Origin: Bacillota bacterium | GTDB lineage: Bacteria > Planctomycetota > UBA8108 > UBA1146 | Assembly: GCA_003973385.1 (NCBI GenBank) | Contig: QNYK01000108.1 | Location: 3,511 to 67,510 of the forward strand | Direction: 5' to 3' | DNA length: 64,000 nt | Shown here: piece after piece, positions 491 through 59,368 of the stretch | Numbering within the stretch: position 1 is the stretch's first letter | Layout: each line of letters opens with the position of its first letter | Notes under the pieces: model-generated | What the model was told of the DNA's origin: nothing | What the model saw: only the letters and a program-made list of their open reading frames with translations | Database searches by the model: none | Made by a program: the position numbers and the translations under genes

Positions 491-1812
491 TGAATTTCAT
501 CGAAGCACTCGAGTCACTGAATACGGGTCAGATGGTGAGGGTGCGCGGCACAGTTGCTCGCGTTACAGGAGTGATCGTCGAGGCGCAAGGTCTGTCACTT
601 CCAGTGGGCGCTGAGTGCACCATCCGGACTCGAGAAGGTGATCAGGTGGTGGCAGAGGTGATCGGGTTCTCCGGCGATAGGTGCCACTTGCTTCCCGAGT
701 CGGGCATCTCAGGAATCGCTCCTCAAGATGTAGTGATTCACGACGGAGAAAAGCCCAGCGTCGAGGTTTCTCACCAGTTGCTGGGGCGCGTTATCAATGC
801 AAGGGGGATCCCCATCGATGGAATGGGACCTGTTCCCTGTGGTGAGAAGATGCCAATCCATGCAGATCCAATTCCGGCGCTTGAGCGTCAGAAGATTGAC
901 CGTGCAGTCCACACGGGTGTACGCGCGTTTGACTCGATCCTGACCGTGGGAGTGGGTCAGCGCCTGGGGATCTTCTCGGGAAGTGGTGTCGGCAAATCGA
1001 CCCTGCTCGGAATGATAGCAAGGAACACCGAACTGCCGATCAGGGTGATCGCGCTGGTCGGAGAACGAGGACGCGAGGTCCGAGAGTTCATCGATCGAGA
1101 CCTCGGGCCTGAAGGCCTTGCTCGAAGCGTTGTTGTGGTTGCGACAGGAGATGAAGCCGCAGTGATGAGACTGAGGGCAGCCAAGGTTGCGACCTCCATC
1201 GCGGAGTGGTTCAGGGATCAGGGAAATGATGTTCTGTTGCTGGTGGACTCCATCACGAGAGTGGCTCTTGCTCAGCGAGAAGTTGGTCTGTGCGCCGGGG
1301 AGCCTCCCACCACCCGGGGATACACACCCAGCGTCTTCGGCATGCTGCCACGGCTTCTCGAGCGAACTGGACCTGGCAAGGTTGGAAGCATCACCGCGTT
1401 TTATTCTGTCCTGGTCGAAGGGGATGACCTGCACGATCCGATAGGGGATGCGGTAAGAGGGATTCTCGATGGGCAGATCTGGTTGAGTAGAGATCTTGCG
1501 AACCGGGGCTGGTTCCCACCGGTAGACCCCTGTGCCAGCACCAGCAGGGCGATGAGTTCCGTGGTCGATCCTGAGCATCTCCTCGGTGCTCGCTCGCTGG
1601 TTGAACTGGTGGCGACACACCGGGAGATCGAGGACATGGTGCGTCTCGGTGCGTATGTCCGCGGTCAGGATCAGAGGTCCGATGCCGCTCTCGATGCGAT
1701 GCCATCCATCGAGGAGTTATTGCGTCAATTGCCTTCAGAAAAGAGTGAGTTCGAGCTCACCAGGAAGCGCCTGATCGATATCACCAGTAACTCCAGCAAG
1801 GAGGTTGCCTGA
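490..1812 (+). CDS. fliI: Flagellar export ATPase FliI
   Basis: Walker A GSGVGKS, 'ALVGERGREVREF', 'DSITRVALAQREVGL..GEPP', 'VRGILDGQIWLSRDLA'. TGATG overlap with fliH (ORF track starts at TTG 487). Confidence 0.96.
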   Translation: MNFIEALESLNTGQMVRVRGTVARVTGVIVEAQGLSLPVGAECTIRTREGDQVVAEVIGFSGDRCHLLPESGISGIAPQDVVIHDGEKPSVEVSHQLLGRVINARGIPIDGMGPVPCGEKMPIHADPIPALERQKIDRAVHTGVRAFDSILTVGVGQRLGIFSGSGVGKSTLLGMIARNTELPIRVIALVGERGREVREFIDRDLGPEGLARSVVVVATGDEAAVMRLRAAKVATSIAEWFRDQGNDVLLLVDSITRVALAQREVGLCAGEPPTTRGYTPSVFGMLPRLLERTGPGKVGSITAFYSVLVEGDDLHDPIGDAVRGILDGQIWLSRDLANRGWFPPVDPCASTSRAMSSVVDPEHLLGARSLVELVATHREIEDMVRLGAYVRGQDQRSDAALDAMPSIEELLRQLPSEKSEFELTRKRLIDITSNSSKEVA

Positions 1813-2270
1813 TGTCGACCGAAGAATTTCGACTCGATGCGCTGCTCAAATTGCGAAAGAAAGAAGCCAATCTGCAACAAGGAAAAATGAATGCTTGCAT
1901 CCGGAGACTGGAAGAACAGCACCAGGAAATGGACAGAACCAACCAGGAATACAACGCGGTGGTCACTCTCCTCCGGGAGGAGGATCAGATCGGAGCGACC
2001 CTCTCGGAACTGATGGTTCATCGCAGATATCTCGAACGGATGAGAGATCTGGCGAAGCAGCAGGGGGAACTCTCGGATGCATTGGCAGCGGATCTTGAAC
2101 AGGTTCGAGGTCATGTCATCGAGGCCATCCAACGATGTCGTGCGGTCGAAAAATTGAAGGAACGGTTTGTTGAGCGGGAATCAGAACGTGCCGAACGAAG
2201 CGAGCAGCGCTTCGTCGATGCCGAGACCAGCGCTCGGTTTGCGGCGGTGATCCAGGCGGAATCAGCCTGA
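1812..2270 (+). CDS. fliJ: Flagellar export chaperone/stalk FliJ
   Basis: 152-aa coiled coil starting 'FRLDALLKLR' and ending 'VEKLKER...EQRFVD', directly after fliI. Confidence 0.85.
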   Translation: MSTEEFRLDALLKLRKKEANLQQGKMNACIRRLEEQHQEMDRTNQEYNAVVTLLREEDQIGATLSELMVHRRYLERMRDLAKQQGELSDALAADLEQVRGHVIEAIQRCRAVEKLKERFVERESERAERSEQRFVDAETSARFAAVIQAESA

Positions 2271-2325
2271 CAGGGGCAGAGTCCTGCTCAGTAGCGAGCG
2301 GAACACAGTGGAAGGGAAACCAGCG

Positions 2326-2991
2326 ATGGAAAATCTCCGGAGTCGAAAAAGAAATGAACTCCGCTGGGTGAGAACAGTGGTGCTGTTGGCATTGTTGGTG
2401 ATCGTGGTCACCACATTCATCGATGCACAACAGTTTCCGGTTCCGAAAACAGCAACCAATAGTGATGTGTCAGGAACTCCTGTGCCAGACGAGCGTTTTG
2501 CCAATGGCGGCGTCATTGCTGCTGCAAGTTCCGGCAGTTCCTCTGCGCCATGGAAAACAATTCAGGCACTTGGGGCAATTCTCGTCATCACAGGAGTGGG
2601 AATCGGTGGGTACATATTGATTCGTAAATATGCGCCAGGAGCGATTCCGGGGACGGATTCTCGCATGAAGGTTCTGATGCGGATGCCCATCGGGAATCGC
2701 CAAAGCATCATCATCCTTCGGGTAGGTGACAGGGTGCTTGTTGTGGGCGCTTCCTCCGGCGGCATGAAGTGCCTCAGCGAGATCACCGATCAACATGAAG
2801 TTGAAAACCTCAGCTACGGTGTGGAGTTCTCACGGGAACGGAGAAAAGTAAACGAATTGGTAGATAGCGAGGATCTCGGCGACTTTGTCGAGGACGATGA
2901 GAAAACCAGCGATGTGCAACATGAGATCGAGTGGCTTCGTGACCGCCTGGATGGTTACGGAGAGAAGGTCGAAGGAAAGGTGCGTACGTGA
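2326..2991 (+). CDS. fliO: Flagellar biosynthesis protein FliO/FliZ
   Basis: TM helix followed by 'MKVLMRMPIGNRQSIIILRVGDRVLVVGAS..GMKCLSEI' (FliO beta domain); precedes fliP. Alternative GTG start at 2308. Confidence 0.85.
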   Translation: MENLRSRKRNELRWVRTVVLLALLVIVVTTFIDAQQFPVPKTATNSDVSGTPVPDERFANGGVIAAASSGSSSAPWKTIQALGAILVITGVGIGGYILIRKYAPGAIPGTDSRMKVLMRMPIGNRQSIIILRVGDRVLVVGASSGGMKCLSEITDQHEVENLSYGVEFSRERRKVNELVDSEDLGDFVEDDEKTSDVQHEIEWLRDRLDGYGEKVEGKVRT

Positions 2992-3833
2992 TCAACGTCC
3001 GGCGTTCACTGATTCTGGGAGTCCTCGTGGCGTTTGCGATCTTGTTCATCGCAGCGCCGGAAGCGATGGCGAACGCCGATGATGGTGCAGAGGTAGGAAT
3101 CATCGATCGTATTCTGAGTGGATCTCCGGGCGATGTAGATGTTTCTATCAAGTTGATCTTGCTGACAACAGTTCTCGCCATAGCACCGGCACTGTTGATG
3201 CTGACGACCTGCTTTACGCGAATCATCGTGGTGTTGGGATTTGTCAGGCGAGCCATTGGCACCCAGGATTCGCCACCCAACCAGGTTCTCGTGGGACTCG
3301 CCTTCCTGCTCACGCTGGCAGTGATGGGGCCGGTCTGGAGCGATATCTACACCAATGCGATCCAGCCCTATGCAGACCAGACTCCGATGCCGACCACCGG
3401 GAAGGTGCCTACAGGGGAAGAAGCGTACGCTTACGCAGATTCGAAGATGCGGGAGTTCATGTACCACGCCATCGACGAGGGTGACCTGCTCTTGATGGCC
3501 AGGGTAGGCGCAGCAAAAACTGTCGAGGAACAATACGAGGAAGACGGGATCATCAGCGCTGAATTCGTCGATTCATTACCGACCACGGTGATCATCCCGG
3601 CGTTTGTCCTCAGCGAGCTGAGGCGAGCCTTCGAGATGGGATTCATGATCTACATCCCATTTGTCGTCATCGACCTGGTGGTCTCCGCATTGCTGGTCTC
3701 GATGGGGATGTTGATGCTTCCACCGGTGGTTGTGTCGCTCCCCTTCAAGGTGCTGGTTTTCGTGCTGGTGGACGGTTGGGGACTGGTAGTCGAGCAGCTG
3801 TTGTTCTCCTCGATGGTGACGGTGACCGGATGA
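2988..3833 (+). CDS. fliP: Flagellar export gate protein FliP
   Basis: 'FTRIIVVLGFVRRAIGTQDSPPNQVLVGLA', 'PAFVLSELRRAFEMGFMIYIPFVVIDLVV', 'MGMLMLPP..SLPFK..FVLVDGW'. Confidence 0.96.
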   Translation: MINVRRSLILGVLVAFAILFIAAPEAMANADDGAEVGIIDRILSGSPGDVDVSIKLILLTTVLAIAPALLMLTTCFTRIIVVLGFVRRAIGTQDSPPNQVLVGLAFLLTLAVMGPVWSDIYTNAIQPYADQTPMPTTGKVPTGEEAYAYADSKMREFMYHAIDEGDLLLMARVGAAKTVEEQYEEDGIISAEFVDSLPTTVIIPAFVLSELRRAFEMGFMIYIPFVVIDLVVSALLVSMGMLMLPPVVVSLPFKVLVFVLVDGWGLVVEQLLFSSMVTVTG

Positions 3834-4108
3834 CCCGATTAGATGTAGCACTGGATTTCCTCCAGCAGGCGTTGCTCGTTGCACTGCAACTGTCGGTGCC
3901 AATATTGTTGGTGATGATGATTGTCGGAATTGCCGTGAGTCTCATCCAGGCAATGACTCACCTACAGGATCAAACTCTCACCTTCGTTCCGAAGATCCTT
4001 GCCGTCGCCATGGCTCTGTTACTGCTGATGCCACTGCTATTGGGATGGGCGACCGAGTTCACCAGGGAAATGATCCAGGCCTCCGCCGTCGCGCTGGGTG
4101 GGGGGTGA
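3830..4108 (+). CDS. fliQ: Flagellar export gate protein FliQ
   Basis: 'VGIAVSLIQAMTHLQDQTLTFVPKI'. ATG 3830 overlaps the fliP stop. Confidence 0.95.
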   Translation: MTRLDVALDFLQQALLVALQLSVPILLVMMIVGIAVSLIQAMTHLQDQTLTFVPKILAVAMALLLLMPLLLGWATEFTREMIQASAVALGGG

Positions 4109-4114
4109 TCCAGG

Positions 4115-4948
4115 ATGGCTGAGCTTTTCGAATACTCCATCTCCTCATGGACCGGCTGGTTCCTCGTATTCATGAGGATCTCGGGAGCGATGATGGTGCT
4201 TCCCATCTTCTCTTCTCGCACTATTCCTGCCCGGATCAAGGCCGCGATTGCGGCGCTGATCGCGCTCTGCGTGGCGCCACTGGCCATCGCAGATCCTTCC
4301 GGAACCGGCGCCAGGGAGATGGGGGAGTTGATGGCGACACCGCTGGTTGGCGCCGTCTCCATCTGTGGTGAGCTGGCTCTTGGCTGGGTCCTGGGCGCCA
4401 CTGCAGCGGTATTGATGTGGGGCGCGCACCTCGGAGGACAGTTGATTGGACAGGATTCTGGGCTGGCGTTTGGTCAGGTGGTCGACCCCACGACCGGGCA
4501 AGCGACGGCTCCGACGGCGACATTGATGATGATTTTCGCAGGACTTGCTTTTCTGGCACTGGAAGGTCATCGGCTGGTGATCCTGGCGCTGTGCGGCTCC
4601 TTCGATGCCGTTCCTCCCGGATCCATCGGCAATATCCTGATACACGGGGTTCCCCTCACCACCGCTGCTCGCATCACGAGCGAGATCGGCTCGCAAACCT
4701 GGATGCTTGGACTTCAGATCGCTTTCCCGGCCAGTATCGCGCTGCTGGTGACGACCTTGGGCCTCGGTTTGATGGCCCGGATGATTCCCGAGATGAATGT
4801 GTTTGCGGTTGGCTTTGCAGTGCGTACAGGGGTTGGAATGCTGGCCCTCTTCATGACACTTCCCTTCATCGCTGATCTGTTTGGTGCTGTCGTCTCAACG
4901 GGCCTCCAGGGATCGCAGATGATCCTCAATGGACTCGGAGGGAACTGA
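4115..4948 (+). CDS. fliR: Flagellar export gate protein FliR
   Basis: 'FMRISGAMMVLPIFS...IPARIKA', 'GQLIGQDSGLAFGQVVDP', 'GLMARMIPEMNVFAVGFAVR'. Confidence 0.95.
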   Translation: MAELFEYSISSWTGWFLVFMRISGAMMVLPIFSSRTIPARIKAAIAALIALCVAPLAIADPSGTGAREMGELMATPLVGAVSICGELALGWVLGATAAVLMWGAHLGGQLIGQDSGLAFGQVVDPTTGQATAPTATLMMIFAGLAFLALEGHRLVILALCGSFDAVPPGSIGNILIHGVPLTTAARITSEIGSQTWMLGLQIAFPASIALLVTTLGLGLMARMIPEMNVFAVGFAVRTGVGMLALFMTLPFIADLFGAVVSTGLQGSQMILNGLGGN

Positions 4949-4949
4949 A

Positions 4950-5789
4950 GTGATATTCCAGATGACTGACCACGGTGAGAAGACCGAAGCTCCGACGCGC
5001 AAACGACTGGAATCGGCTCGACTGGAGGGTCGGGTAGCACTCAGCACTGACCTGGTCGGATCCTTCGTGCTGACTTCTGGTTTCGGTTTCTTGCTTTTCT
5101 TCTCCGGGAGCATTTTTGCAGCGATCTTTTCAGGAACCAGGGCATCTCTGGGTTCCATCGGGAGTATCCGACTCGACGAGCAGGCAAGCCTCCAGTTGCT
5201 GACAGATGCGGTGGAACAATCCCTCGTCATCTTGCTGCCGATACTGATGACGTTATTTGCCGTCGCGGCAGTGGTGACATGGTTGCAGGTAGGCCTACGC
5301 ATCCGCACAGAGGAGGTGTTGCCGGATCTGCAAAGAGTCGATCCGATCCGAGCACTGATGAACATCATCGGCCTCGGAGGGCTGAGGCGAGTGGTTATGG
5401 GAGTGCTGAAATTGATCGCCGTGGGAATCGTGCTTGTTCCGGGTATCTGGGGCCTGATGGGGGACTCTGAAGTGATCCGCAGTGCTGCGGTGGTGGCAGC
5501 AGATGGATCTCTGGCTGCGGTCGGCGCGAAACTGGTCGAACTGATCCTGCAGGCATGTGGTGCCCTGCTGGTCGTTTCCGCGGTGGATTGGGCCTACAGG
5601 CGCTGGGTTTACGAGAGATCCCTGATGATGAGCCGGAGAGAAGTCGAGGACGAGAAGAGAGAAATGACCGGCGATCCTCACCTGAAAAGAAGACGCAAGC
5701 AGCGGCATCAGCAAATCCTGGCGAAGCGGGGGCCGGAGTTCACCGACGAGACGTTACTCCACGGCGGATCGACAGGTGATTCCCGATGA
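4950..5789 (+). CDS. flhB: FlhB, C-terminally truncated (no NPTH motif, no CC domain)
   Basis: 'EKTEAPTRKRLESARLEGRV', four TM segments and 'LMMSRREVEDEKREMTGDPHLKRRR'. About 279 aa from GTG 4950 (ATG 4962 alternative). The stop overlaps the flhA start. Confidence 0.92.
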   Translation: MIFQMTDHGEKTEAPTRKRLESARLEGRVALSTDLVGSFVLTSGFGFLLFFSGSIFAAIFSGTRASLGSIGSIRLDEQASLQLLTDAVEQSLVILLPILMTLFAVAAVVTWLQVGLRIRTEEVLPDLQRVDPIRALMNIIGLGGLRRVVMGVLKLIAVGIVLVPGIWGLMGDSEVIRSAAVVAADGSLAAVGAKLVELILQACGALLVVSAVDWAYRRWVYERSLMMSRREVEDEKREMTGDPHLKRRRKQRHQQILAKRGPEFTDETLLHGGSTGDSR

Positions 5790-7951
5790 ACGAGCACCAG
5801 ATGCAAACACTGACGCCAGCCTCCGGGTGGAAAAATACCATCCGCAGGAACCGGGATCTCGCAGTCGTGATGGCGCTCGCTGGGATCCTCATCGCCATCC
5901 TTGTGCCACTGCCCGGGCGATTGATGGACGGGTTGCTCGGCGCGAACATCGGCTTATCAGTGCTGGTGCTACTCACGGTGGTATTTCTGCGAAAGCCGCT
6001 CGAGTTCGCAGCATTTCCTTCCCTGTTGCTGCTGGCGACGCTGTACCGTCTCGCCCTCAACATCGCCACGACTCGATTGGTTCTCAGTCGTGCAGGAGAC
6101 GAAGGAGTTTCGGCAGCTGGAGATGTGGTGCACTTCTTCGGTGAGTTTGTTTCGGGATCCAATTTGATCGTCGGTTTCATCATCTTCTCGATACTCGTGG
6201 TGATCCAGTTTGTCGTTGTGACCAAGGGAGCCACTCGTATTGCAGAAGTGGCTGCTAGATTCACGCTCGACAGGATGCCGGGCGCTCAGATGGCCATCGA
6301 TGCCGATCTCAATGCGGGCAACATCACGGGAGACGAGGCGAGGACTGCAAGAGAGGAGCTCGCCGGACAGGCAGATTTTTACGGGGCGATGGATGGAGCC
6401 AGCAAGTTTGTCCGCGGAGATGCCATCGCCGCGATCATCATCACGATCATCAATATCGTTGGTGGATTCACCATCGGAGTCCTGCAGTACGGGATGACCT
6501 TTGCTGAAGCGGGAAGGGTATTCACGACCCTGACCATCGGAGATGGCCTGGTCACGCAGATTCCTGCACTTTTTATCAGCGTCGCTGCAGGGTTGATGGT
6601 CACCAGAGCATCGACGAAGGGGCAGATCGGAGACGCCGTCGTCGGGCAGTTGTTCGGAAACCCGAGGGCCCTGGCGATCACGGCTTTGATTCTGGTGGCC
6701 CTTGCCTTCACTGGTTTGCCTCCCGGTGTTCTTGGTGTTCTGGCTGTTTCACTGGCGGCTGTGGCTTACTGGTCGCGAAAACCGAACCAGGAGCAGATCG
6801 GTTCAGAGACTGCAGTGGCGGAGCCCTCCCTCGCCGAGACCGTCGCAACAACAGAAGACGCCAGGCAGGGGGGTAGGGCCAGCACGCGCCATTTCGAGTT
6901 CTCAGGCCAGCAACCGATTCGCATCGAACTCGGTTACGGCCTTCAGAGTCTTATTGAACCGGAATCATCAGGAGTTGCACTCAATGTTCGGGTTCAGCAA
7001 CTGAGAGAAGATCTTCAGAAAGAACTTGGATTCTGGATTCCCCCTGTACACGCCAGGGTGCAGATTCGCGGAATCCCGAGGCAAGAGTTCAGCATCCAGT
7101 TGAGAGAGATTCCCTGTTCGCGTGGTGTGTTGAGAGCAAGGAAGGCACTCATCGTTTCAGATCATCGGCGCTCCATAGATGGAATTGCAGGAGATGCTGC
7201 TGAACTGGAGATTCTTGAAGCACCCGCGAAGTGGGTATCGCTCGAAGAGGGTGATATGCGCAAGTCACTCGGATACCGGGTACTGACGGCGCAGGATGCG
7301 CTGATTCTTCACCTCCGAAACGTGATCATGGAACACATTCAGGAACTTCTGACCCAGAAGGAAACTCGCAGGATCCTTGAACGAGTTGGCGAGGAGTGCC
7401 GAACTCTCGTGGACGAAGTGGTTCCGGATCTGCTGCGAGTCGGAGAGATACAAAAAATTCTCCAGTCGCTACTCGCAGAGGGAGTCTCGATCCGGGATAT
7501 GGAGAAGATCCTCGAAACGCTGGGCGAGGAGGTGCAGCAACGTCCTGAAGCGCGCCAGGATCTCACAGCGCTGGCGGAGACGGTGCGAACAGTTCTCGGC
7601 CGCAGCATCTGTACTCAGTATCTGGATCAGCAGGGCAAGCTCCATGTCGTCACCCTGGATCCCCAGATCGAGAGTGTCTTGCTGGACGATCTGGAACCTG
7701 CCGATCGCGCCGGGAATGGCCCGTGTCTGTCACCACAGTTGCATGAGACGGTGATGGAAGCGCTGGTCATGGCGGTACACCAGCTGGTGGAGAATGACCA
7801 TCCTGCAGTCATCCTCACCTCGCCCCGGCTGAGGAGTCCGATCAAGAAGCTGCTGGAGAAGGAAGTGCCCACGGTGGCGGTCCTCTCCTACAATGAAGTT
7901 GGCCACGGTACCACCGTGGAATCTGGGGGGATGGCGAGAATCGTTGCCTGA
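5786..7951 (+). CDS. flhA: Flagellar export gate protein FlhA
   Basis: 'FPSLLLLATLYRLALNIATTR', FHIPEP 'RIAEVAARFTLD.MPG.QMAIDADL', 'DFYGAMDGASKFVRGDA', 'IGDGLVTQIPAL', full cytoplasmic domain ending 'VLSYNEV'. Confidence 0.97.
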   Translation: MNEHQMQTLTPASGWKNTIRRNRDLAVVMALAGILIAILVPLPGRLMDGLLGANIGLSVLVLLTVVFLRKPLEFAAFPSLLLLATLYRLALNIATTRLVLSRAGDEGVSAAGDVVHFFGEFVSGSNLIVGFIIFSILVVIQFVVVTKGATRIAEVAARFTLDRMPGAQMAIDADLNAGNITGDEARTAREELAGQADFYGAMDGASKFVRGDAIAAIIITIINIVGGFTIGVLQYGMTFAEAGRVFTTLTIGDGLVTQIPALFISVAAGLMVTRASTKGQIGDAVVGQLFGNPRALAITALILVALAFTGLPPGVLGVLAVSLAAVAYWSRKPNQEQIGSETAVAEPSLAETVATTEDARQGGRASTRHFEFSGQQPIRIELGYGLQSLIEPESSGVALNVRVQQLREDLQKELGFWIPPVHARVQIRGIPRQEFSIQLREIPCSRGVLRARKALIVSDHRRSIDGIAGDAAELEILEAPAKWVSLEEGDMRKSLGYRVLTAQDALILHLRNVIMEHIQELLTQKETRRILERVGEECRTLVDEVVPDLLRVGEIQKILQSLLAEGVSIRDMEKILETLGEEVQQRPEARQDLTALAETVRTVLGRSICTQYLDQQGKLHVVTLDPQIESVLLDDLEPADRAGNGPCLSPQLHETVMEALVMAVHQLVENDHPAVILTSPRLRSPIKKLLEKEVPTVAVLSYNEVGHGTTVESGGMARIVA

Positions 7952-8000
7952 CTTGCCGAGTCAGCTGGCGGTTTTTTCGCGGGGAAAGGGGAGCGTGCTC

Positions 8001-9431
8001 TTGAATGAGCCAACAGTACCCGGTGACGCGGGGCACACCCGCGTCGTAGCACCGGATTACGCATCTGCAGTTCGCATTCTTCAGGATCGATTCGGGAGTG
8101 ATTGGACAGTGGTCCATTCGCGAAAGGTTCGAAGGCCTGGATTTCTGGGATTGTTCGGCGTTTCTGATGTGGTCGTGATTGTCCGCACCGAGGAAGCGAT
8201 GCTATTCCAGCCTCAGGCAAATCCCGTCGTCTCCTCCAGTGGGAAACTGGCGCCATTGGCCAGAGAGTTGGGCGAGATTGATGTCCCTGTTTCGATCCCT
8301 GACCTCGTGCCGGTCACCGCAGGCAATTTCGAGCCGAGCAACGGAGCGGGGAATCTGGTGTATCGCCTCGAGGGTGCTCGCAGTCGCATCGCAGAGGAGT
8401 TGAAGGCGTATTCCAAATCGCTGGCAGGAGAATCGGCTACCGTTCCATGGAATCCAGTTCCGCCGAGAACTGACGAGGAATCACCGATCGAAATTGTGCG
8501 TCCCGGCGTTGCGATGCAGATGAAAACCGAAAGCGCTGCTTTCCTTGATGGGATGGCTGAGCCGATCGAGCCAGTGAGTACCGAAAAACTGATCGGCAAC
8601 AACATCGAGCAGAGTGAAGGCACGGATGTTGATCCCGCCTTCCTCGGTGCAGTGTTGACTCATTGCGATGTGGCTGGATTTCCTCCTGCGGCGCTGAAGA
8701 CCATCGTGCAGCAGGTTTGCGCCGATCCGATAGACGAGAGCCTGGGTCCCGAGGATTACCAGCAGATCGCCAGGGAAAGGATCGTTCGCTGCATCAAGGA
8801 GCGGATTCCTGACACGATGCAGATCGCAGGCGGATCGGTCGGCCAGCCGAGGGTGGTGGCTCTGGTCGGTCCCACGGGTGTCGGAAAGACCACGACGCTG
8901 GCGAAACTGGCGGCACATTTCCATCTGGTCGAGAAGAGGAGGGTCGGTCTTGTGACTCTCGATTGCTACAGAATCGGAGCCATCGAGCAACTGCGCCGAT
9001 TCGCCGAAATACTGGGCCTGCCTCTGAAAACAGTTTCCGAGACAGCAGGCGCGGCAGAGGCGATCGAGGGGTTCTCCGATTGCGATGTGATTCTGGTCGA
9101 TACAGCTGGCCGTAGTCAGCGCGACCAGGAACGCCTCATCGAGGTGAGGGATTCTCTCGCCAACATCGGAGACGTCGAGATACACCTGTGCCTGTCACTC
9201 GCTGCATCGCCGGAAGCGATCGTCGCCGCTGCGGAATCGTTTCGGATGGTCAAATACGACCGTGTCATCTTCACCAAACAAGATGAGTCGTATCGAAAGG
9301 GGTTCCTCTGGGACCTGTTCGGCGTGACTCCGGTTCCAGTCTCCTATGTCACCTGTGGGCAAGAGGTCCCCGAGGATATCCAGGCGGCTACCCGGGATTT
9401 GATCTGTGACATGATGATTCAGGGAAGATGA
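8001..9431 (+). CDS. flhF: SRP-type GTPase FlhF
   Basis: 'GPTGVGKTTTLAKLA', 'DCYRIGAIEQL', 'DTAGRS', 'TKQDE', 'GQEVPEDI'. Start probably TTG 8001 or GTG 7995; the track start at 7893 lies inside flhA. Confidence 0.93.
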   Translation: MNEPTVPGDAGHTRVVAPDYASAVRILQDRFGSDWTVVHSRKVRRPGFLGLFGVSDVVVIVRTEEAMLFQPQANPVVSSSGKLAPLARELGEIDVPVSIPDLVPVTAGNFEPSNGAGNLVYRLEGARSRIAEELKAYSKSLAGESATVPWNPVPPRTDEESPIEIVRPGVAMQMKTESAAFLDGMAEPIEPVSTEKLIGNNIEQSEGTDVDPAFLGAVLTHCDVAGFPPAALKTIVQQVCADPIDESLGPEDYQQIARERIVRCIKERIPDTMQIAGGSVGQPRVVALVGPTGVGKTTTLAKLAAHFHLVEKRRVGLVTLDCYRIGAIEQLRRFAEILGLPLKTVSETAGAAEAIEGFSDCDVILVDTAGRSQRDQERLIEVRDSLANIGDVEIHLCLSLAASPEAIVAAAESFRMVKYDRVIFTKQDESYRKGFLWDLFGVTPVPVSYVTCGQEVPEDIQAATRDLICDMMIQGR

Positions 9432-10312
9432 GAGACCAGGCCTGGCGACTTCGAAAAATGGTCGAAGAGAAGGTCTTCCCTGTCAGGGGTAGGGCGAGGG
9501 TGCTGGCCGTGACCAGTGGCAAGGGTGGTGTTGGAAAGACCAACATCTCGGTCGGGCTTGCCATCGCAGCCGCTGCATCTGGAATCCGCACCGTGCTGCT
9601 CGATGGAGATCTCGGCCTGGCCAATATCGATGTACTACTCGATCTCCATCCGAGAAAGCACCTGGGTCACCTGATCGATGGAGAGGCGTCTCTCGAAGAG
9701 GTGCTGATCGACTCACCAGGAGGAATCCAGGTACTCCCTGGTGCGAGCGGCTTGACCAGGGTTGCAGATCTTGGAAATGTTCAGAAACAGCGCCTGCTCG
9801 AAGCAGTGGCGAGGCTGGTGGAAGAATTCGATCTGGTCCTGATCGATACGGGGGCTGGAATTTCTCGTGCAGTACTCGATCTGTGCATATGCGCGGGAGA
9901 GGTGCTGGTGGTGACGACACCGGAACCAACTGCAATCGTCGACGCCTATGCGATGCTGAAAGTGTTTTCGACCGAGGCGTCTGCCCCCAAGAAATGGCTC
10001 GTGGTCAATCAGGTACTCTCTCGGGGAGAAGCTCAACAGGTTTCCAGTCGCATGATCGGTCTCGCCCAGCAATTCCTGGGCAGTGAGGTGAACGGTTGTG
10101 GTTCGGTGTTGCTGGATCCGCGTGTCAGGGCATCGGTACGCAGGAGGCAGCATTTCTCTCTGGCCTATCCTTCCTGCCCTGCGGCCAAGGGGGTCAAGGA
10201 AGTGGCTCACAATCTCGGCCTGGCGGGGCGAGCAGGGAGCCATGGCTTCCTCAACCGTCTGAAAGAAATATGGATCGGGGATCGGAGCAGGCCCCGGGAG
10301 CGTTCTATTTGA
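9428..10312 (+). CDS. flhG: MinD-like ATPase FlhG/FleN
   Basis: N-terminal 'DQAWRLR', deviant Walker A 'SGKGGVGKT', 'DGDLGLANID', 'DTGAGIS', 'TTPEPTAIVDAYA'. Confidence 0.95.
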   Translation: MRDQAWRLRKMVEEKVFPVRGRARVLAVTSGKGGVGKTNISVGLAIAAAASGIRTVLLDGDLGLANIDVLLDLHPRKHLGHLIDGEASLEEVLIDSPGGIQVLPGASGLTRVADLGNVQKQRLLEAVARLVEEFDLVLIDTGAGISRAVLDLCICAGEVLVVTTPEPTAIVDAYAMLKVFSTEASAPKKWLVVNQVLSRGEAQQVSSRMIGLAQQFLGSEVNGCGSVLLDPRVRASVRRRQHFSLAYPSCPAAKGVKEVAHNLGLAGRAGSHGFLNRLKEIWIGDRSRPRERSI

Positions 10313-10485: not shown

Positions 10486-11331
10486 TTGGCGCAGATCGAG
10501 TCGGGAGAGACACGGCAAGCGATTCCTGCAAACGATTCCCTGGTCGGTAAGACTCGGATGCAGGATGACCCGGAACTCGAGCAGGTGTGGATCGAGTTCA
10601 AGAAATCTCAGAGTACGGACCTCAAGAATAATCTCCTGGAGAGGTATCTGCACATCGTTCGATACACTGCAGACCGTCTTCACATGAAATTACCGCAGCA
10701 GGTCGATGTAGAAGACCTGTACAGTGCGGGATTGTTCGGACTGATGGATGCGATCGATAACTACGATCTGACTCGCATGGTGAAGTTCGAGTCCTATTGC
10801 TCTATCAGGGTTCGAGGTTCGATTCTTGACTCTCTTCGCGCCCAGGACTGGGTGCCGCGCCTGGTTCGCTCAACGGCCAATCGCATCGATGCTGCCTGGA
10901 GGAAGTTCCAGAACGAGACGGGCAGAGAACCTACCGACTTCGAGATGGCTGAGCAACTGGGAGTGACCGACGAGGAATTCGAATCGATGCAGCGAGAAGC
11001 GTCCGCGGCTTCCATCGTCTCGATCTCGGATCAGATTTCTGACGATGGGGAGTCCAGATCACTGAGAAAGATCGATATTCTCAATGACAAGAAGGCCAAG
11101 TCTCCCGACGAAGATTCACTCCGAAATGCGATCAAGGAATTCATCTATGATCAACTGGATTGTCGTGAGCAGGCGATCATCGATGGCTACTACTTCCAGG
11201 GGAAGACGATGAAAAGCATCGGATTGGATCTTCATCTTTCAGAATCGAGAGTTTGCCAGCTCCACTCCCGGATCATGAGCCGATTGCGCCAGACCTGCGA
11301 CAAGCACCGACTCGACTTCATGCAGGATTGA
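10486..11331 (+). CDS. fliA: RNA polymerase sigma-28 factor FliA/WhiG
   Basis: 'DVEDLYSAGLFGLMDAI...KFESY..IRVRGSILDSLRAQDWVPR', 'LSESRVCQLHS'. AGGAGA upstream of the TTG start. Confidence 0.95.
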   Translation: MAQIESGETRQAIPANDSLVGKTRMQDDPELEQVWIEFKKSQSTDLKNNLLERYLHIVRYTADRLHMKLPQQVDVEDLYSAGLFGLMDAIDNYDLTRMVKFESYCSIRVRGSILDSLRAQDWVPRLVRSTANRIDAAWRKFQNETGREPTDFEMAEQLGVTDEEFESMQREASAASIVSISDQISDDGESRSLRKIDILNDKKAKSPDEDSLRNAIKEFIYDQLDCREQAIIDGYYFQGKTMKSIGLDLHLSESRVCQLHSRIMSRLRQTCDKHRLDFMQD

Positions 11332-11372: not shown

Positions 11373-13148
11373 ATGAGCAACTCCGACCGGATCCCCACGG
11401 AACAAGCGCCGCCATCTGGCCACAAGCAACCGCTGCCGAGATGGATGTTCCTCGTCGCAGTGTTGCTCGCCTCTCTCGCAGCGTCCCAGTTCTTGATGCG
11501 TAGCTGGACGCTGGTCGGATTCCCCCAGGAGATCCGCTACGGCGAGGCGGTCGTGCTCGATCAGGCACGCAGGGTGATGGCTGAGCCAGGCCTCTACCCC
11601 GAGATAGGCAAGGAGCCGTGGCTCCTCGACCAGTACGCACCCTTCTATCCATTTCTCGCTCACATCGTCGGTAAGTTTTCTTCTTCACCATACGGTGGCG
11701 GGCGAGCCATCTCGATGTTGGCGACCCTCCTCTCGGCAGTGATGTTGACTCTGATCGTGCGCAGATCATCTGGGATCGCCGCAGGGCTGCTCTGCGGAGC
11801 AGCGATGCTGACGATGATGGAGTTCCTTCGCTTCGGATTCTTGATGAGGGTCGATCCACTCGCATTGTCGCTGGCGATGATCGGAGTCTGGTGCAACCTG
11901 CATCAGAAAACCTCGGTCAGAATTTTCGGTGCGGCTGCTTTCTTCTTTGCCGTCTATACGCGTCAGACGACGGTGGCACTACTGCTGGTGAGTTACATAC
12001 AGATGTGGCGTCAGGAGGGCAGAGTGGCTCTTCGTTGGCCACTATCGCTGCTTGCGGTAGGGCTGCTCTTCTACGGATTTCTTGTTCTGGTGACTGACGG
12101 TGCATTTCATCATCACGCCGTGATGTCGAATCTGTTTCATTTCGAGTGGGCAGAGGGACTGAAGAAAGCATTTTCAAGTTTCATGCCCTGGAGGGCACCA
12201 CTTTTCATCGGCATCTTCCTGGCATTGATCCCGGGCCCTGAACCTGGTGCAATCCGACCCCGCAGAGCCCGCACCGCTGGATTCCTGGTGATGGGGCTGG
12301 CTCTGGGATGCTGTGTTCAGGCACTGATACAGTTCGTGGTTCCCATCAGCGATCCAGCAGTGGTCAACAAATGGATTTGCTACGGACATGTTGTGTTGTT
12401 TGGCTATGCGACCTGGACCATCTTTCGTGGCACCAGCGCCACCAGGGGGGATGGCATCGGGATCGATGGCGTCAGGATCGTGATGGCGCTCGCATCGATG
12501 ATCCTCATCGGGCGCATCGGATCCGATCTGAACTACCTGTTCGAGGCGGGGATCCTGATGCTGCTGGTGTGTGGAGGAGCCATCGGCAGGGTCGCACCAC
12601 CAAGGGCTCTGATCATCTCGTTGTTGCTGGCGATTCAGGTGCTGGGTGGGTTCTATCTGAGCGGTCTGCAACTGGAGTTTCAACCGGAGCGATTGCTGGA
12701 GATGAAGGAACGCCATCGCATCATCGATCACCTCGAGGTTTATCCAGATCCGGTCCTCAGCGAGGAGCCATGGGCATTGGCACAAACTGGACGACCGCTG
12801 ATGCTGGGACCCTACACCGCAAGACAGATGTACGACATCGGACTGTGGGATGGCAAGGACCTGATCGCAGCTCTCGATGCCCAGAGATATTCCGCCATCG
12901 TTCGGGCGAAGCAGAGAAGTTATGCCGGTCTGGAGCATGACGTGAATGGCAACGTCATCATCGCTGCGGACGGATTGCCGATACCGTACTTCGGCCCCTG
13001 GACATTCAACTCGGTCAGGTCGTTACCACTGGAGATCCAGCAAGCCATCGAGGGGAATTATCAGCAAGCACCAGGGACCACCATGATCGAGAGGGTGACG
13101 AAGTACTATCTCGAAGGAAGAGAGATCTGGGTACCGATCCCTCGCTGA
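11373..13148 (+). CDS. Polytopic membrane protein, GT-C (ArnT/PMT-like) glycosyltransferase
   Basis: Many TM helices, first loop 'YGEA...YAPFYP..A', 'GGRAISMLA', 'RVDPLAL', 'YTRQT', and a soluble C-terminal domain. Confidence 0.6.
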   Translation: MSNSDRIPTEQAPPSGHKQPLPRWMFLVAVLLASLAASQFLMRSWTLVGFPQEIRYGEAVVLDQARRVMAEPGLYPEIGKEPWLLDQYAPFYPFLAHIVGKFSSSPYGGGRAISMLATLLSAVMLTLIVRRSSGIAAGLLCGAAMLTMMEFLRFGFLMRVDPLALSLAMIGVWCNLHQKTSVRIFGAAAFFFAVYTRQTTVALLLVSYIQMWRQEGRVALRWPLSLLAVGLLFYGFLVLVTDGAFHHHAVMSNLFHFEWAEGLKKAFSSFMPWRAPLFIGIFLALIPGPEPGAIRPRRARTAGFLVMGLALGCCVQALIQFVVPISDPAVVNKWICYGHVVLFGYATWTIFRGTSATRGDGIGIDGVRIVMALASMILIGRIGSDLNYLFEAGILMLLVCGGAIGRVAPPRALIISLLLAIQVLGGFYLSGLQLEFQPERLLEMKERHRIIDHLEVYPDPVLSEEPWALAQTGRPLMLGPYTARQMYDIGLWDGKDLIAALDAQRYSAIVRAKQRSYAGLEHDVNGNVIIAADGLPIPYFGPWTFNSVRSLPLEIQQAIEGNYQQAPGTTMIERVTKYYLEGREIWVPIPR

Positions 13149-13368: not shown

Positions 13369-14421
13369 TTACCCCAGTATTCGCACTTGAGTGGAACCCT
13401 CAGCAGGTTTGACCTCGCCGATGATGCAGTATCTCTGGACACTCTCTCGCTCCATCGTCTCTGCAAGAGCCCCGAGGTTTTCAGGAGCGATGGCCATCAG
13501 AAGGCCTCCAGAAGTTTCTGAATCGAGAGCCAGATTGAGCAGGTGCGACGGTATATCACCGGACAATTGCAGATGATCACCGAGGTGGGTGCGGTTTCGC
13601 TTCGAGCCACCGGAGACCAGTTCCCTGCGAGCAAGATCTTCGGCTCCCGACAGGATCGGCAGATCTGAAGCGACGAACTCCAGAGTCACGCCGCTGGCAG
13701 CCGCCATCTCGGCGGCGTGTCCACAAAGCCCGAAGCCAGTGACATCGGTGACGGAATGTGCATCGAGTGCAATGGCAGCCTGTGCTGCGCCAGCGTTGAG
13801 GGTAGACATCGATGATGTAGCACTACTCAGCACATCTGCATCCGCTTGTCCCTTGTTGAGAGCGGTGCTCACGGTTCCTGTCCCGAGGGCTTTGGTGAGC
13901 ACCAAGATGTCTCCAGCGCGAGCACCTCCGTTGGTGAGTATTTTCGCAGGATCGATGGTGCCGGTCACTGCGAGTCCATATTTCACCTCGGAGTCGCGGA
14001 CGCTATGTCCGCCCAGCAAGGCGCAGTTGGCTTCCACCAACTTCTCCGCTCCCCCGGCGAGGATCTCACCGAGCAGAGAAATCGGAAGTTCCTGAGGAAA
14101 CCCCACGATGTTGAGCGCGCTCAGTGGTGATCCACCCATGGCGTAGATGTCCGACAGACTGTTGGCTGCTGCGATACGGCCAAAATCCCCGGGGTCATCG
14201 ACGATCGGCGGAAAGAAATCTACCGTCTGGACGATGCAGTGATTGGTCCCGGGAATCTGGATGACCCCGGCGTCATCCAGGGTGCCTGGACCGTGGAGAA
14301 CCTCGGAGCGTGTCGGTAGCTGCAGGTTGGAGAGGACCTCGACCAGGTCCCCCGGAGGGAGCTTGGACGCTCAGCCTGCACAGGATGCGTATTGTGTGAG
14401 TCGAATCTGTTCATCAGACAC
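13369..14421 (-). CDS. selD: Selenide, water dikinase SelD (selenoprotein, Sec at codon 17)
   Basis: GTG at 14421 (AAGGAG upstream) reads MSDEQIRLTQYASCAG-(TGA 14373..14371)-ASKLPPGDL...DDAG...QTVDFFPPIVDDP..FGRIAAANSLSDIYAMGG, in frame with track ORF 13369..14139 (GGHS, TDVTGFGL, ETSGGLL). 350 aa. Confidence 0.96.
14332..14352 (-). promoter_or_regulatory. Bacterial SECIS-like hairpin in selD
   Basis: GGGGACCT-GGTCG-AGGTCCTC (8-bp stem with one G-U pair, G-led loop) begins 18 nt 3' of the in-frame UGA. Confidence 0.7.
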
Positions 14422-14477
14422 TGGTGCTGCTCCTTCCCGGATGAGCGAGGATCACACCACATGAGGATGGCGTCAAG

Positions 14478-20083: not shown

Positions 20084-20851
20084 ATGAGTCACGAGCCTGC
20101 GACCGCAAATGCCTGGTATCTCGACGCCTTTCGGGCGGAGTATCTGGAGGTCTATCCGTGGCGCGATCAGGCCTCCGCAGAGCAAGAGGTCGACCGCGCC
20201 CTGGAATGGCTCTCGGTCTCCCCTCAGGATCGAGTACTCGACCTCTGTTGTGGCGCTGGGCGGCATAGCCACTGGATCAGAAACAACTGTTCGCTGCTCT
20301 ATTCCCTCGATCTCTCGGAGAGCCTCTTGAAACGAGCCCGCTCGCAGCTGGGCCGTGATGCGGCGCTGGTGCGAGCCGATGTCCGCACCCTCCCCTTCGT
20401 CGATGCCAGTTTTGACCAGGTGCTGATGTTCTTCACTTCCTTTGGTTACTTCGCCACCGATGAAGAAAATGGATCGGTGCTGAAGGAGGTGGCGAGGGTG
20501 GTCCGGGTCGATGGTGGGTTACTTCTCGATCTGCCCGATAGAGATTCAACCATCGAGGGCCTGGTGGCGAGCAGCCACCGCAGCGAGGGGGATCTATCGA
20601 TCGAGGAGCATCGTTCTCTCTCTGTCGATGGCAAGAGAGTGGAGAAGTCGGTGGTTCTGGAGCGCGGTGGGAATGAACGTCGGTACACCGAATCGGTTCG
20701 GTTGTATCACTTCGATGAGATGGAGACGCTGTTGATTCAGGCTGGCTGGAAGATCTCAAATTGCCACGGCGACTGGCAAGGAGGTCGTTACATCTGCGGA
20801 GAATCTCCCCGCATGATCATGGTGGCCATGCGACAGGATGAAGATCGATGA
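20084..20851 (+). CDS. Class I SAM-dependent methyltransferase, candidate bacillithiol N-methyltransferase (NmbA-like)
   Basis: 'WY..AF..EYLEVY..RD', 'VLDLCCGAGRHS', 'FTSFGYF..DEEN..VL', 'ESVRLY'. Its stop overlaps the bshC start. Confidence 0.8.
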   Translation: MSHEPATANAWYLDAFRAEYLEVYPWRDQASAEQEVDRALEWLSVSPQDRVLDLCCGAGRHSHWIRNNCSLLYSLDLSESLLKRARSQLGRDAALVRADVRTLPFVDASFDQVLMFFTSFGYFATDEENGSVLKEVARVVRVDGGLLLDLPDRDSTIEGLVASSHRSEGDLSIEEHRSLSVDGKRVEKSVVLERGGNERRYTESVRLYHFDEMETLLIQAGWKISNCHGDWQGGRYICGESPRMIMVAMRQDEDR

Positions 20852-59367: not shown

Positions 59368-59368
59368 A

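Follow-up and report, generated by a model that had tools for sequence, protein, structure and literature searches.

We show that FlhB encoded in a 64,000-nucleotide stretch of DNA from a marine planctomycete (the window, to which all positions refer) is a natural form of this protein that keeps the membrane domain and the linker helix and lacks the autocleavage site and the entire CC (switch) domain. FlhB/SctU carrying the NPTH motif and the CC domain is treated as part of the universal core of type III secretion. This planctomycete and many of its relatives have lost the flagellum and have kept an export core with a switch-less FlhB under selection. As the best explanation, which we hold with somewhat better than even confidence, we propose that the CC-less FlhB acts in a selected, flagellum-derived type III exporter with a single substrate class, permanently set to the 'late' mode, with a FlgM-like protein as the best candidate substrate. 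In the literature searched, i.e. open-licence PMC papers and bioRxiv, we found neither a natural CC-less FlhB nor a reduced planctomycete export gate.

The flhB gene occupies positions 4929 to 5789 on the plus strand, as do all genes of the window described here, and its reading frame from the ATG at 4929 encodes 286 amino acids. The GTG at 4950, favoured as the start in a first-pass annotation of this DNA, fits better, being placed 7 nt 3' of a GGAGGG and agreeing better with the 277-278-aa orthologues than the ATG at 4929, so that the product probably comprises 279 amino acids. Aligned to the FlhB/SctU family, only the membrane part is matched: Pfam Bac_export_2 (PF01312) aligns with profile positions 1-243 of 335 (E 1.5e-52) and nothing is matched past position 243, the CC domain corresponding to positions of about 260-335; the NCBIfam FlhB and SctU equivalogs align with model positions 1-249 only and score below their cut-offs (TIGR00328, 155.7 bits versus 349.25; TIGR01404, 158.8 bits versus 358); and alignments with solved FlhB chains stop at their residues 251-253. 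The C-terminal end reads ...GDPHLKRRRKQRHQQILAKRGPEFTDETLLHGGSTGDSR, followed by the stop. When 16 full-length relatives are aligned with FlhB, its tail PEFTDETLLHGGS is placed over ..DVPQADVVITNP.. of these proteins; this bears out the earlier claim that the protein stops where NPTH would be expected, and the NPTH autocleavage motif is absent from the sequence. Both the N-terminal motif and the four-helix membrane domain wrapping the FliPQR base are present (PF01312, 6s3l_K), the loop residues Q120 and P139 are invariant in 12 truncated homologues, and the gene sits between fliR and flhA, the order fliP-fliQ-fliR-flhB-flhA being found here and in 10 related loci. The AlphaFold model of FlhB has a pLDDT of 75, dropping below 50 in the tail 270-286, and a fold comparison gave a single significant match, the FlhB chain of the FliPQR-FlhB complex (6s3l_K; E 5.7e-4, TMt 0.75).

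At the 3' end of the gene, the flhB stop codon TGA (5787-5789) overlaps with the flhA ATG at 5786, forming an ATGA at positions 5786-5789. Because FlhA starts immediately (FHIPEP, E 4.5e-220), no frame can hold a CC domain, so that the ORF listing and the FHIPEP match agree with what had been read from this overlap; a CC-coding remnant 3' of flhB is likewise absent because flhA begins within the flhB stop codon. The purine-rich final codons of flhB are predicted to be the ribosome-binding region of flhA. In the first-pass annotation the tidy coupling to flhA had been taken to argue for a fixed, selected state. The state is indeed fixed and selected (9/9 genomes of the genus, dN/dS 0.14), but such a coupling is not confined to this junction: ATGA couplings occur elsewhere in the operon (487-490, 2988-2991, 3830-3833 and 9428-9431), and an ATGA at flhB/flhA is also found in one full-length relative. 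Truncated and full-length forms have the overlap and the purine-rich final codons in common and their end-points vary by lineage, a comparison suggesting that the CC domain was lost by in-frame deletion rather than by a nonsense mutation. The coupling appears to be ancestral and retained through this deletion, and for this reason it is by itself no evidence of selection.

The gene belongs to a 13-gene operon, fliF-H-I-J-O-P-Q-R-flhB-flhA-flhF-flhG-fliA, which is the sole flagellar machinery found in the genome. The window opens with the 3' part of fliH (68-490; PF02108, E 9.7e-20), whose start precedes the window on contig C5, followed by the export ATPase gene fliI (487-1812; ATP-synt_ab, E 1.3e-79; T3SS_ATPase_C, E 3.9e-19), fliJ (1812-2270; PF02050, E 6.2e-8; TIGR02473, E 3.8e-12, below its cut-off), fliO (2308-2991; PF04347, E 1e-10), fliP (2988-3833; PF00813, E 1.3e-70), fliQ (3830-4108; PF01313, E 1.1e-22) and fliR (4115-4948; PF01311, E 3.6e-55). 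The longest reading frame of fliQ begins at 3776; its start is likely the ATG at 3830, which forms an ATGA overlap with the fliP stop. Downstream of flhB, flhA (5786-7951) is complete and retains its cytoplasmic domain intact, matching FHIPEP positions 1-654 of 657 and TIGR01398 (E 1.7e-211), and its C-terminal 381 amino acids align lengthwise with solved FlhA-C structures. The operon continues with flhF for an SRP-type GTPase (7893-9431; SRP54, E 4.7e-38; TIGR03499, E 1.2e-49), flhG for a MinD/ParA-type ATPase (9428-10312; ParA/CbiA families and MinD-type models), whose place after flhF is conserved in every cluster compared, and fliA for sigma-28 (10486-11331), which exceeds the cut-off of TIGR02479 FliA/WhiG (215.1 versus 189.6 bits). 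3' of fliA lies orf591 (11373-13148), encoding a polytopic membrane protein without a Pfam or NCBIfam match, which adjoins fliA in the reduced clusters of the genera g1 (the window's genus), g5 and g7. It is an uncertain member of the export system and was rejected as a part specific to the reduced system, homologues being present also near the flagellar clusters of three flagellated genomes (G027, G028 and G029).

This operon is under purifying selection and syntenic in several genera of the planctomycete class. Compared with a 90%-identical relative (L053), dN/dS ranges from 0.044 to 0.264 in all 12 genes scored, at an unsaturated dS of 0.12-0.44, with values of 0.142 for FlhB, 0.058 for FliI and 0.044 for FliP; conservation is strongest in FliI, FliH, FliJ, FliP, FliQ and FliR. 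The genera g1, g5, g7 and g4 preserve the synteny, with intact reading frames and an unchanged gene order across genera sharing 40-80% protein identity. Contigs from metatranscriptome libraries of two studies match parts of the operon, which is only a hint at expression because such libraries can hold DNA; these contigs leave parts of the operon uncovered, e.g. the flhB 3' end at 5412-5813, and such gaps are uninformative on expression.

The loss reaches far beyond switching. The comparison set comprises 41 genomes of the window's class; since the window genome has a completeness of 92% and every relative is a draft, every gene absence reported here means 'not found'. Flagellin (PF00669), FliK (PF02120) and rod/hook proteins (PF00460) gave no match in the window genome and in 28 other genomes with a reduced system, whereas 11 of the 41 have flagellin, 12 have FliK and 12 have the N-terminal domain of rod/hook proteins, all of them without a truncated FlhB. 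In the window genome, FliM/FliN (PF01052) remained without a match up to E 1, the FliG_C torque domain (PF01706) gave only E 0.7, and FliE (PF02049) gave no match. C-ring proteins are also missing in most of the 23 genomes with a truncated FlhB; FliN is kept in g4 and in the family f7, FliG_C in g14 and f7. Because filament, rod/hook, FliE and C-ring parts are missing, the system is no longer a flagellum. The C ring normally docks FliH, and FliE opens the FliPQR gate in flagella. Searches for the usual late chaperones, FliS and FlgN, were negative as well, which together with the missing FliE and the C ring missing in the window's genus was counted against late-mode export.

Truncated FlhB proteins, defined by a profile end at or before position 250 and encoded by frames of 263-305 amino acids, are present in 23 of the 41 genomes, i.e. 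in 9/9 genomes of g1, so that the orthologues of the genus share the state, and in 14 genomes from five other genera (g5, 4/6; g7, 5/5; g16, 3/3; g17 and g19, one each). The reduced state without flagellin, FliK and rod/hook proteins is wider, comprising 29/41 genomes from at least four families. Three genomes (G011, G020 and G024) encode a full-length FlhB with a degenerate NPTH motif (SPGR, AGDL and AGPS, respectively); flagellin, FliK and rod proteins are missing from these three as well. G018 encodes a 304-aa form with a low-complexity remnant. A tree of the FlhB membrane domain requires 4 changes of the truncated state (bootstrap range 4-5), and in it the full-length forms with a degenerate motif fall within the truncated forms of g5; taken by themselves, the strongly supported branches are compatible with a single origin of the truncation. 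Since sister lineages keep the CC domain with a degenerate NPTH and the deletion end-points differ, the domain probably disappeared by in-frame deletion on several occasions. A homologous-protein search with FlhB returned at least 23 matches, the five close ones having 278-303 amino acids. Among the best 150 FlhB representatives, 60 proteins have 306 amino acids or less, which may comprise complete genes as well as contig-end fragments, and several short ones ending within ..ADVV.TNPT.. or within the linker may be fragments. Phylum-wide, PF01312 matches in 174 of 301 genomes; among the matches listed and judged by the best E-value, G043, G060 and G156 are the only possible short forms outside the window's class.

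We identified a candidate for a divergent FlgM-like anti-sigma factor outside the window (G000:C28:20297-20617), designated P0173, with 107 amino acids. It is conserved in 18/41 genomes, belonging to exactly the genera g1, g5 and g7, in which Pfam FlgM was not found; the latter passes its cut-off in 19 other genomes, so that one or the other is present in 37/41. A profile-profile comparison of 15 P0173 orthologues with 7 canonical FlgM proteins gave a probability of 95% (E 4e-8, 59 columns). The FlgM export signal is N-terminal, and at the N-terminus of P0173 the residues M1, G8 and G10 are invariant in the 15 sequences. Counted against late-mode export was that P0173 gives no Pfam match even at E 10 and reaches only E 0.16 against a custom FlgM profile. 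In 16 of the 18 upstream regions of P0173 orthologues we found the motif T[CA]AAG-N16-[CT]CGA[AT] at a fixed distance (-128 to -158), which is sigma-28-like when compared with the consensus. A genome scan with a sigma-28-type motif, using crude gene calls and missing the promoter of P0173 itself, gave 88 matches, of which 6 are located between genes and precede an ORF; the motif is too degenerate for the scan to define a regulon.

In flagella, FlhB-CC is the docking site of early substrates of the rod/hook type and the target of FliK. This suggests a model according to which the axial proteins were lost first, and, as the comparison of genomes indicates, FlhB-CC would have become useless because its early substrates were gone. 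The NPTH motif would then have been lost, followed by in-frame deletions sparing the final codons with the flhA ribosome-binding site. The FliF ring, the gate formed by FliPQR, the FlhB membrane domain and FlhA, and the FliHIJ ATPase would still work as a type III exporter, with one substrate class and permanently in the 'late' mode, selecting substrates via FlhA-C and, because there is no rod, releasing them into the periplasm. The best candidate substrate would be the retained divergent FlgM-like anti-sigma factor, so that the machine would control the retained sigma-28 regulon by way of secretion and possibly also export other sigma-28-dependent proteins. The intact FlhA-C, FliA scoring above its family cut-off and the retention of P0173 are consistent with the late mode, an idea that we carry over from Salmonella, and the substrate is a putative one.

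Several other explanations have to be weighed against this model. A truncation produced by misassembly or by a recent nonsense mutation in one genome, in favour of which we found no point, has next to no probability: besides the identical end in 9/9 genomes of the genus and the lack of a CC remnant downstream of flhB, a cluster of 97%-identical 286-aa proteins has 69 member sequences, and an independent metagenome contig of 14,285 nt from another study (DNA run X5) spans positions 3000-9000 with 61 substitutions and 0 indels, showing the same flhB/flhA junction. These findings refute it. The first-pass annotation had left a choice between a loss of switching together with fliK and a naturally split FlhB. 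The former agrees with our data as far as it goes, FliK being found neither in the window genome nor in any of the 23 genomes with a truncated FlhB. A split FlhB, with a CC-like partner of the FlhX/YlqH type acting in trans and either diverged beyond detection or encoded in the unassembled 8% of the genome, gains some plausibility from the incomplete assembly and from the existence of stand-alone CC genes in 9/41 genomes of the class, yet all nine belong to the 18 genomes without a truncated FlhB (7/9 with a full-length FlhB, the other two being 79-81% complete), and Pfam detects a stand-alone CC in 0/23 truncated genomes (completeness 79-96%), including the window genome. Moreover, two custom CC profiles including these nine stand-alone domains, run at full sensitivity against 56,745 six-frame ORFs of the window genome, gave a best E of 1.7, and the CC partner FliK and all early substrates are missing too, so that we regard a split as very improbable. 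That the cluster is a non-functional remnant being lost, with the CC deletion as one step of decay, would fit the progressive erosion from a degenerate NPTH via the 304-aa remnant to the clean deletion and the shedding of different further parts, such as FliN and FliG_C, in different lineages. Purifying selection on 12/12 genes scored, the intact frames and gene order at 40-80% protein identity and the occurrence of the reduced state in at least four families argue against decay, making it improbable.

A more serious competitor, though in our view still an unlikely one, is that the machine has been retained for a purpose other than export, i.e. as a polar membrane landmark under the control of FlhF/FlhG, as an ion conductor based on FlhA or as a platform that sequesters FlgM or FliA and secretes nothing, with the FlhB membrane domain retained only for the assembly of FliPQR-FlhA. 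FlhF, FlhG and FliA are kept (dN/dS 0.26, 0.08 and 0.11), the system lacks FliE and the rod, by which the flagellar gate is opened and extended, the FlgM-like protein is the sole candidate secreted cargo identified, and the motif scan yields no regulon. Against this, the strongest conservation is seen in FliI, FliH, FliJ, FliP, FliQ and FliR, for which we know of no role besides export, and the FlgM-like protein has a conserved N-terminus. Tentatively, and with clearly less than even confidence, the late-mode exporter might be extended to the whole marine Planctomycetota class, in which the export apparatus would have turned into a free-standing inner-membrane type III exporter without rod, hook, filament, C ring and switch, fixed in the late mode by repeated deletion of FlhB-CC and exporting the FlgM-like factor, and perhaps other proteins of the sigma-28 regulon, to the periplasm. 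If true, this would represent a novel device for secretion-coupled signalling and for secretion, and nature itself would confirm that late export is set by removal of FlhB-CC.

The planctomycete genomes look like a natural version of the CC-removal experiment in Salmonella and provide a natural test bed for the role of the lone FlhB membrane domain and for the use of an export gate without a flagellum. For annotation, short FlhB proteins score under the NCBIfam equivalog cut-offs, and a prediction of motility by counting export-gate genes would wrongly label such organisms as flagellated.

Comparison with known systems sets the planctomycete machine apart in several respects. The injectisome resembles it in being a flagellum-derived export machine without a filament, and SctU is of the same family as FlhB, the SctU and FlhB models scoring its membrane domain alike. 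In contrast, injectisome SctU keeps NPTH and the CC domain and switches with a ruler protein, and the neighbours of the planctomycete flhB are flagellar (FliO, FlhF, FlhG and FliA), FlhA scoring 704 bits as FlhA versus 570 bits as SctV. Stand-alone FlhB-CC paralogues are FlhX of Helicobacter and YlqH of Bacillus, and Buchnera basal bodies represent a reduced flagellar set in a non-motile bacterium. An flhB' is listed for Legionella pneumophila (PMC5655016). As in these systems, the CC domain exists as a separate gene in flagellated relatives of the planctomycete; unlike in these systems, which hold a CC domain in the cell, none was found in the window genome or the other truncated genomes. According to excerpts of the respective reports, non-flagellated Legionella keep only FliA and FlgM (PMC5655016), a FliA-FlgM pair without a flagellum as proposed here, and 'half motors' are reduced or orphan flagellar gene sets (PMC12199754); a CC-less FlhB is reported for neither in these excerpts. 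Buchnera, Legionella and the half motors share with the planctomycete that partial flagellar genes are kept under selection after the loss of motility, but the planctomycete keeps the entire gate, the ATPase, FlhF/FlhG and FliA and has FlhB alone cut down.

Of the known cases, the engineered flhB-deltaCCD of Salmonella (Chevance et al., mBio 2026; PMC13344023) comes closest. In this construct the flhA ribosome-binding site and the last nine flhB codons were kept, a layout that is the natural one in the planctomycete, and a separate flhB stop at residue 258 was also recovered; like the window FlhB, both alleles end at or just before the NPTH position. In delta-flk Salmonella without rod/hook genes, both send FlgM-Bla to the periplasm via the type III secretion system independently of FliK, FlgE-Bla staying unexported, and the proposal made there is that the change to late export is brought about by physically removing the CC domain (PMC13344023). 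FlhB-deltaCCD worked only with basal-body genes overexpressed, and the second inhibitor, Fluke, had to be absent, which was counted against a transfer of the late mode to the planctomycete. Unlike this laboratory-made allele in a fully flagellated host with Fluke deleted and basal-body genes overexpressed (PMC13344023), the planctomycete state is natural, fixed and recurrent, and it goes along with the loss of the axial, filament and C-ring genes.

Judging by its membrane domain and operon position, the product of flhB (4929-5789, + strand; 286 aa counted from the ATG at 4929) belongs to the FlhB/SctU family, yet it fails two defining features of this family, the NPTH autocleavage site and the cytoplasmic switch domain (CC), and stays below the curated equivalog cut-offs. 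The GTG at 4950, taken as start by the first-pass annotation, has GGAGGG 7 nt before it and better fits the 277-278-aa orthologues. Pfam Bac_export_2 is matched from profile position 1 to 243 of 335 (E 1.5e-52), the NCBIfam FlhB and SctU equivalogs up to model position 245-249 with scores below half of their cut-offs, and solved FlhB chains up to chain residue 251-253. The counterpart of its residue 265 is residue 253 in an FlhB chain of 383 residues, and by simple extrapolation the C-terminus (...GDPHLKRRRKQRHQQILAKRGPEFTDETLLHGGSTGDSR) would fall near residue 274 of that chain. The AlphaFold model (12 homologues, pLDDT 75.4) is all-helical with a tail disordered from residue 270, and a fold search with it returned one significant match, the FlhB chain 6s3l_K of the FliPQR-FlhB complex (E 5.7e-4, TMt 0.75); the second-best match is at E 0.83. 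When it is aligned with 16 full-length relatives, its tail overlies ..DVPQADVVITNP.., so that in this genus the protein's end coincides with the NPTH-equivalent position. These comparisons agree on an N-terminal part only, bearing out the initial observation that FlhB ends at the NPTH position without CC.

We regard it as practically certain that CC is truly absent and that this state is fixed. Independent sequence support over the flhB junction comes from a seawater metagenome of a different study, in which a 14,285-nt contig spans window positions 3000-9000 unbroken with 61 substitutions and no insertion or deletion. A protein cluster of 286 aa and 97% identity comprises 69 member sequences, and the orthologues end alike, all nine genomes of the genus having a 277-288-aa frame that ends at profile position 243-250. 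The flhB TGA (5787-5789) overlaps the flhA ATG at 5786, as first described; the coupling had been read as evidence of a selected state, and while the coupling itself stands, its special status does not, since ATGA overlaps occur at five junctions and are thus the rule in this operon.

Full-length relatives likewise have the flhB stop overlapping or directly next to the flhA start (..GTATGA.. in G009), and the last approximately five flhB codons are purine-rich in all forms, serving as the flhA ribosome-binding region. Because this 3' end is shared by full-length and truncated forms, the truncated genes look like in-frame internal deletions, and a premature stop as the cause is disfavoured. The endpoints vary by lineage: the own genus (g1) keeps the sequence to the NPTH-equivalent position (277-286 aa), the main group of genus g5 ends about 20 residues earlier (262 aa), G018 has a 304-aa form with a low-complexity remnant, and genus g7 and families f6 and f7 each have tails of their own (265-274 aa). 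The truncated state needs four changes (bootstrap range 4-5) on a maximum-likelihood tree built from the shared FlhB part, and the two degenerate full-length g5 forms are nested among truncated ones; judged by the best-supported branches alone, one change would suffice. Since a deleted domain cannot easily return, we infer, short of proof, at least three CC deletions within g1 and g5 and further ones elsewhere. A search of 1.84 billion representatives with a profile built from 12 truncated forms gave two length peaks among its best 150 hits, 60 of 239-306 aa, some of which may be fragments, and 90 of 344-381 aa.

The first-pass annotation had left two explanations, a naturally split FlhB with CC supplied in trans, or a loss of switching together with FliK. 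A stand-alone CC gene does exist in nine of the 41 class genomes; seven of these also encode a full-length FlhB, the remaining two are 79% and 81% complete, and none is among the 23 genomes with a truncated FlhB. In the own genome (G000; 92% complete, 108 contigs) a whole-genome Pfam search to E 10 retrieved flhB and a chance FliR match with no separate CC, and two CC profiles, one of the 16 CC domains of full-length relatives and a second adding nine stand-alone CC proteins of relatives, found no CC in 56,745 six-frame ORFs with all filters off (best E 1.7). The split-gene reading is therefore not supported. A loss of switching together with FliK, as a fixed state, is what the class genomes support: the FliK C-domain (12/41), the flagellin N-domain (11/41) and the rod/hook N-terminal domain (12/41) occur in the same set of genomes, with no truncated-FlhB genome among them. 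The 29 genomes without any of the three comprise the 23 with truncated FlhB, three with full-length FlhB and a degenerate NPTH (SPGR in G011, AGPS in G024, AGDL in G020) and three of genus g14 with NPSE, a flagellated member of the same family having NPTE. The loss thus goes beyond switching and extends to the whole flagellum. FliE, FliMN_C, FliG_C, FliS and FlgN were not found in the G000 draft, and the reduction is lineage-dependent, FliN being kept in genus g4 and family f7 and FliG_C in g14 and f7. Each absence means not found, the drafts being 74-96% complete; the pattern is nevertheless consistent across many independent assemblies.

As separate observations, in five of the nine genomes with a stand-alone FlhB-CC this gene (G025:C12:67662-68173, locus L025; G026:C204:8101-8567, L030; G027:C16:33642-34122, L022; G010:C147:10583-11073, L028; G029:C40:108571-109051, L026) directly adjoins a large ORF (507-632 aa) that weakly matches the FliK C-domain (E 5e-5 to 5e-3), for which reason flagellated planctomycetes seem to have a second FliK-like and FlhB-CC-like gene pair apart from the main flagellar cluster. 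Upstream of the window, FliF (contig C5 of G000, ~1260-3185, + strand; 641 aa, YscJ_FliF E 5e-11) is extended at its C-terminus by about 150 aa with weak similarity to the FliG N-terminal domain (PF14842/FliG_N, E 0.027). Between fliF and fliH there is no gene for a separate FliG; the protein may represent a FliF-FliG_N fusion that persisted once the torque-generating part was lost.

What remains is very probably a maintained, flagellum-derived machine. The window opens within fliH, followed by fliI, fliJ, fliO, fliP, fliQ, fliR, flhB, flhA, flhF, flhG and fliA (sigma-28, above the TIGR02479 cut-off), and the order from fliF to fliA is identical in g1, g5, g7 and g4 with small differences in families f4, f6 and f7. 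Compared with L053, a relative with 90% identical FlhB, all 12 window genes have an unsaturated dS (0.12-0.44) and dN/dS from 0.044 (FliP) to 0.264 (FlhF), FlhB being at 0.142; within FlhB, dN is 0.041 in the membrane part, 0.066 in the linker helix and 0.091 in the 21-aa tail. Metatranscriptomic-library contigs from two studies cover portions of fliP-fliR, 5' flhB, flhA and flhF at 95-99%, only a hint of expression. Behind fliA in reduced clusters lies orf591 (11373-13148, + strand), a polytopic membrane protein gene with no match in Pfam or NCBIfam; homologues 26-37% identical occur within ~10 kb of flhB in the flagellated G027, G028 and G029, and the gene appears to be a long-standing, unnamed companion of the flagellar cluster in planctomycetes that has outlasted the reduction. 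Further along, a selD-like gene with AIRS domains (13369-14462, - strand) adjoins selA (14478-15887). It appears N-terminally short under table 11, and reading TGA as selenocysteine extends the frame upstream through ..TQYASCAGUASKLPPGDL.., the usual Sec active-site loop of selenophosphate synthetase. The gene therefore probably encodes a regular SelD selenoprotein whose Sec codon is an in-frame TGA. At 52929-56479 and 57976-60565 (both + strand) the window also has a tandem paralogous DUF4140/DUF4139 pair and, further on, two adjacent D12-class adenine methyltransferase-like genes.

Outside the window, contig C28 of G000 encodes a 107-aa FlgM-like protein, P0173, present in 8/9 g1, 6/6 g5 and 4/5 g7 genomes, exactly the genera without Pfam FlgM, which is above cut-off in 19 others, seven of them genomes with reduced systems. 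P0173 has no Pfam match and reaches E 0.16 with a custom FlgM profile; compared profile to profile, its group matches canonical FlgM with 95% probability (E 4e-8), and both groups have the N-terminal motif M-x-x-x-G-x-x-G-[IV]-G. A T[CA]AAG-N16-[CT]CGA[AT] motif, close to the sigma-28 consensus TAAA-N15-GCCGATAA, precedes the start by 128-158 nt in 16 of the 18 orthologues; of the two without it, one has its upstream region cut by a contig end. The leader of ~100 nt between promoter and start (C28 ~20165-20296; locus L076 ~1370-1500), present in orthologues too, has a 3' part (..CCTCGGAGGGAAGAGGGGTTTTCCCATG) nearly identical across genera whose coding sequences there are 35-58% identical, a possible conserved leader or translation-control element.

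Reduced flagellar gene sets and FliA/FlgM kept without flagella are already described (PMC12199754, PMC5655016); among open-access papers and bioRxiv we found neither a natural FlhB without CC nor a planctomycete system of this kind. The closest counterpart is experimental. In a 2026 Salmonella study, selecting for late secretion in a strain that lacked Fluke, the second export inhibitor, and the rod/hook genes yielded FlhB-CC mutants including a stop at residue 258, and a clean deletion of residues 270-383, designed to leave the last nine flhB codons and the flhA ribosome-binding site in place, behaved the same (PMC13344023). These mutants passed FlgM-Bla through the T3SS into the periplasm with FliK dispensable and lost export of the early substrate FlgE-Bla, from which the authors conclude that FlhB-CC keeps the machine in early mode and supplies the early-substrate docking site (PMC13344023). 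Anatomy, conservation and co-losses are shown for the planctomycete machine, whereas we infer that it exports, and which substrate, from its retention of the parts that late mode requires: a complete FlhA cytoplasmic domain, FliA (retained in G000) and a FlgM-like protein with a sigma-28-type promoter. The best, still tentative reading would be a rod-less type III exporter for a single substrate class, fixed in late mode, which would send at least the FlgM-like protein into the periplasm and thereby set sigma-28 activity. Counting against it, late export in Salmonella needed removal of Fluke and overexpressed basal-body genes (PMC13344023), and G000 shows no FliE, C ring or late chaperones. 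The planctomycete flhB has the same architecture as the Salmonella CC deletion; unlike the flhB-deltaCCD experiment it is natural and apparently recurrent, and its main interest lies in being such a counterpart.
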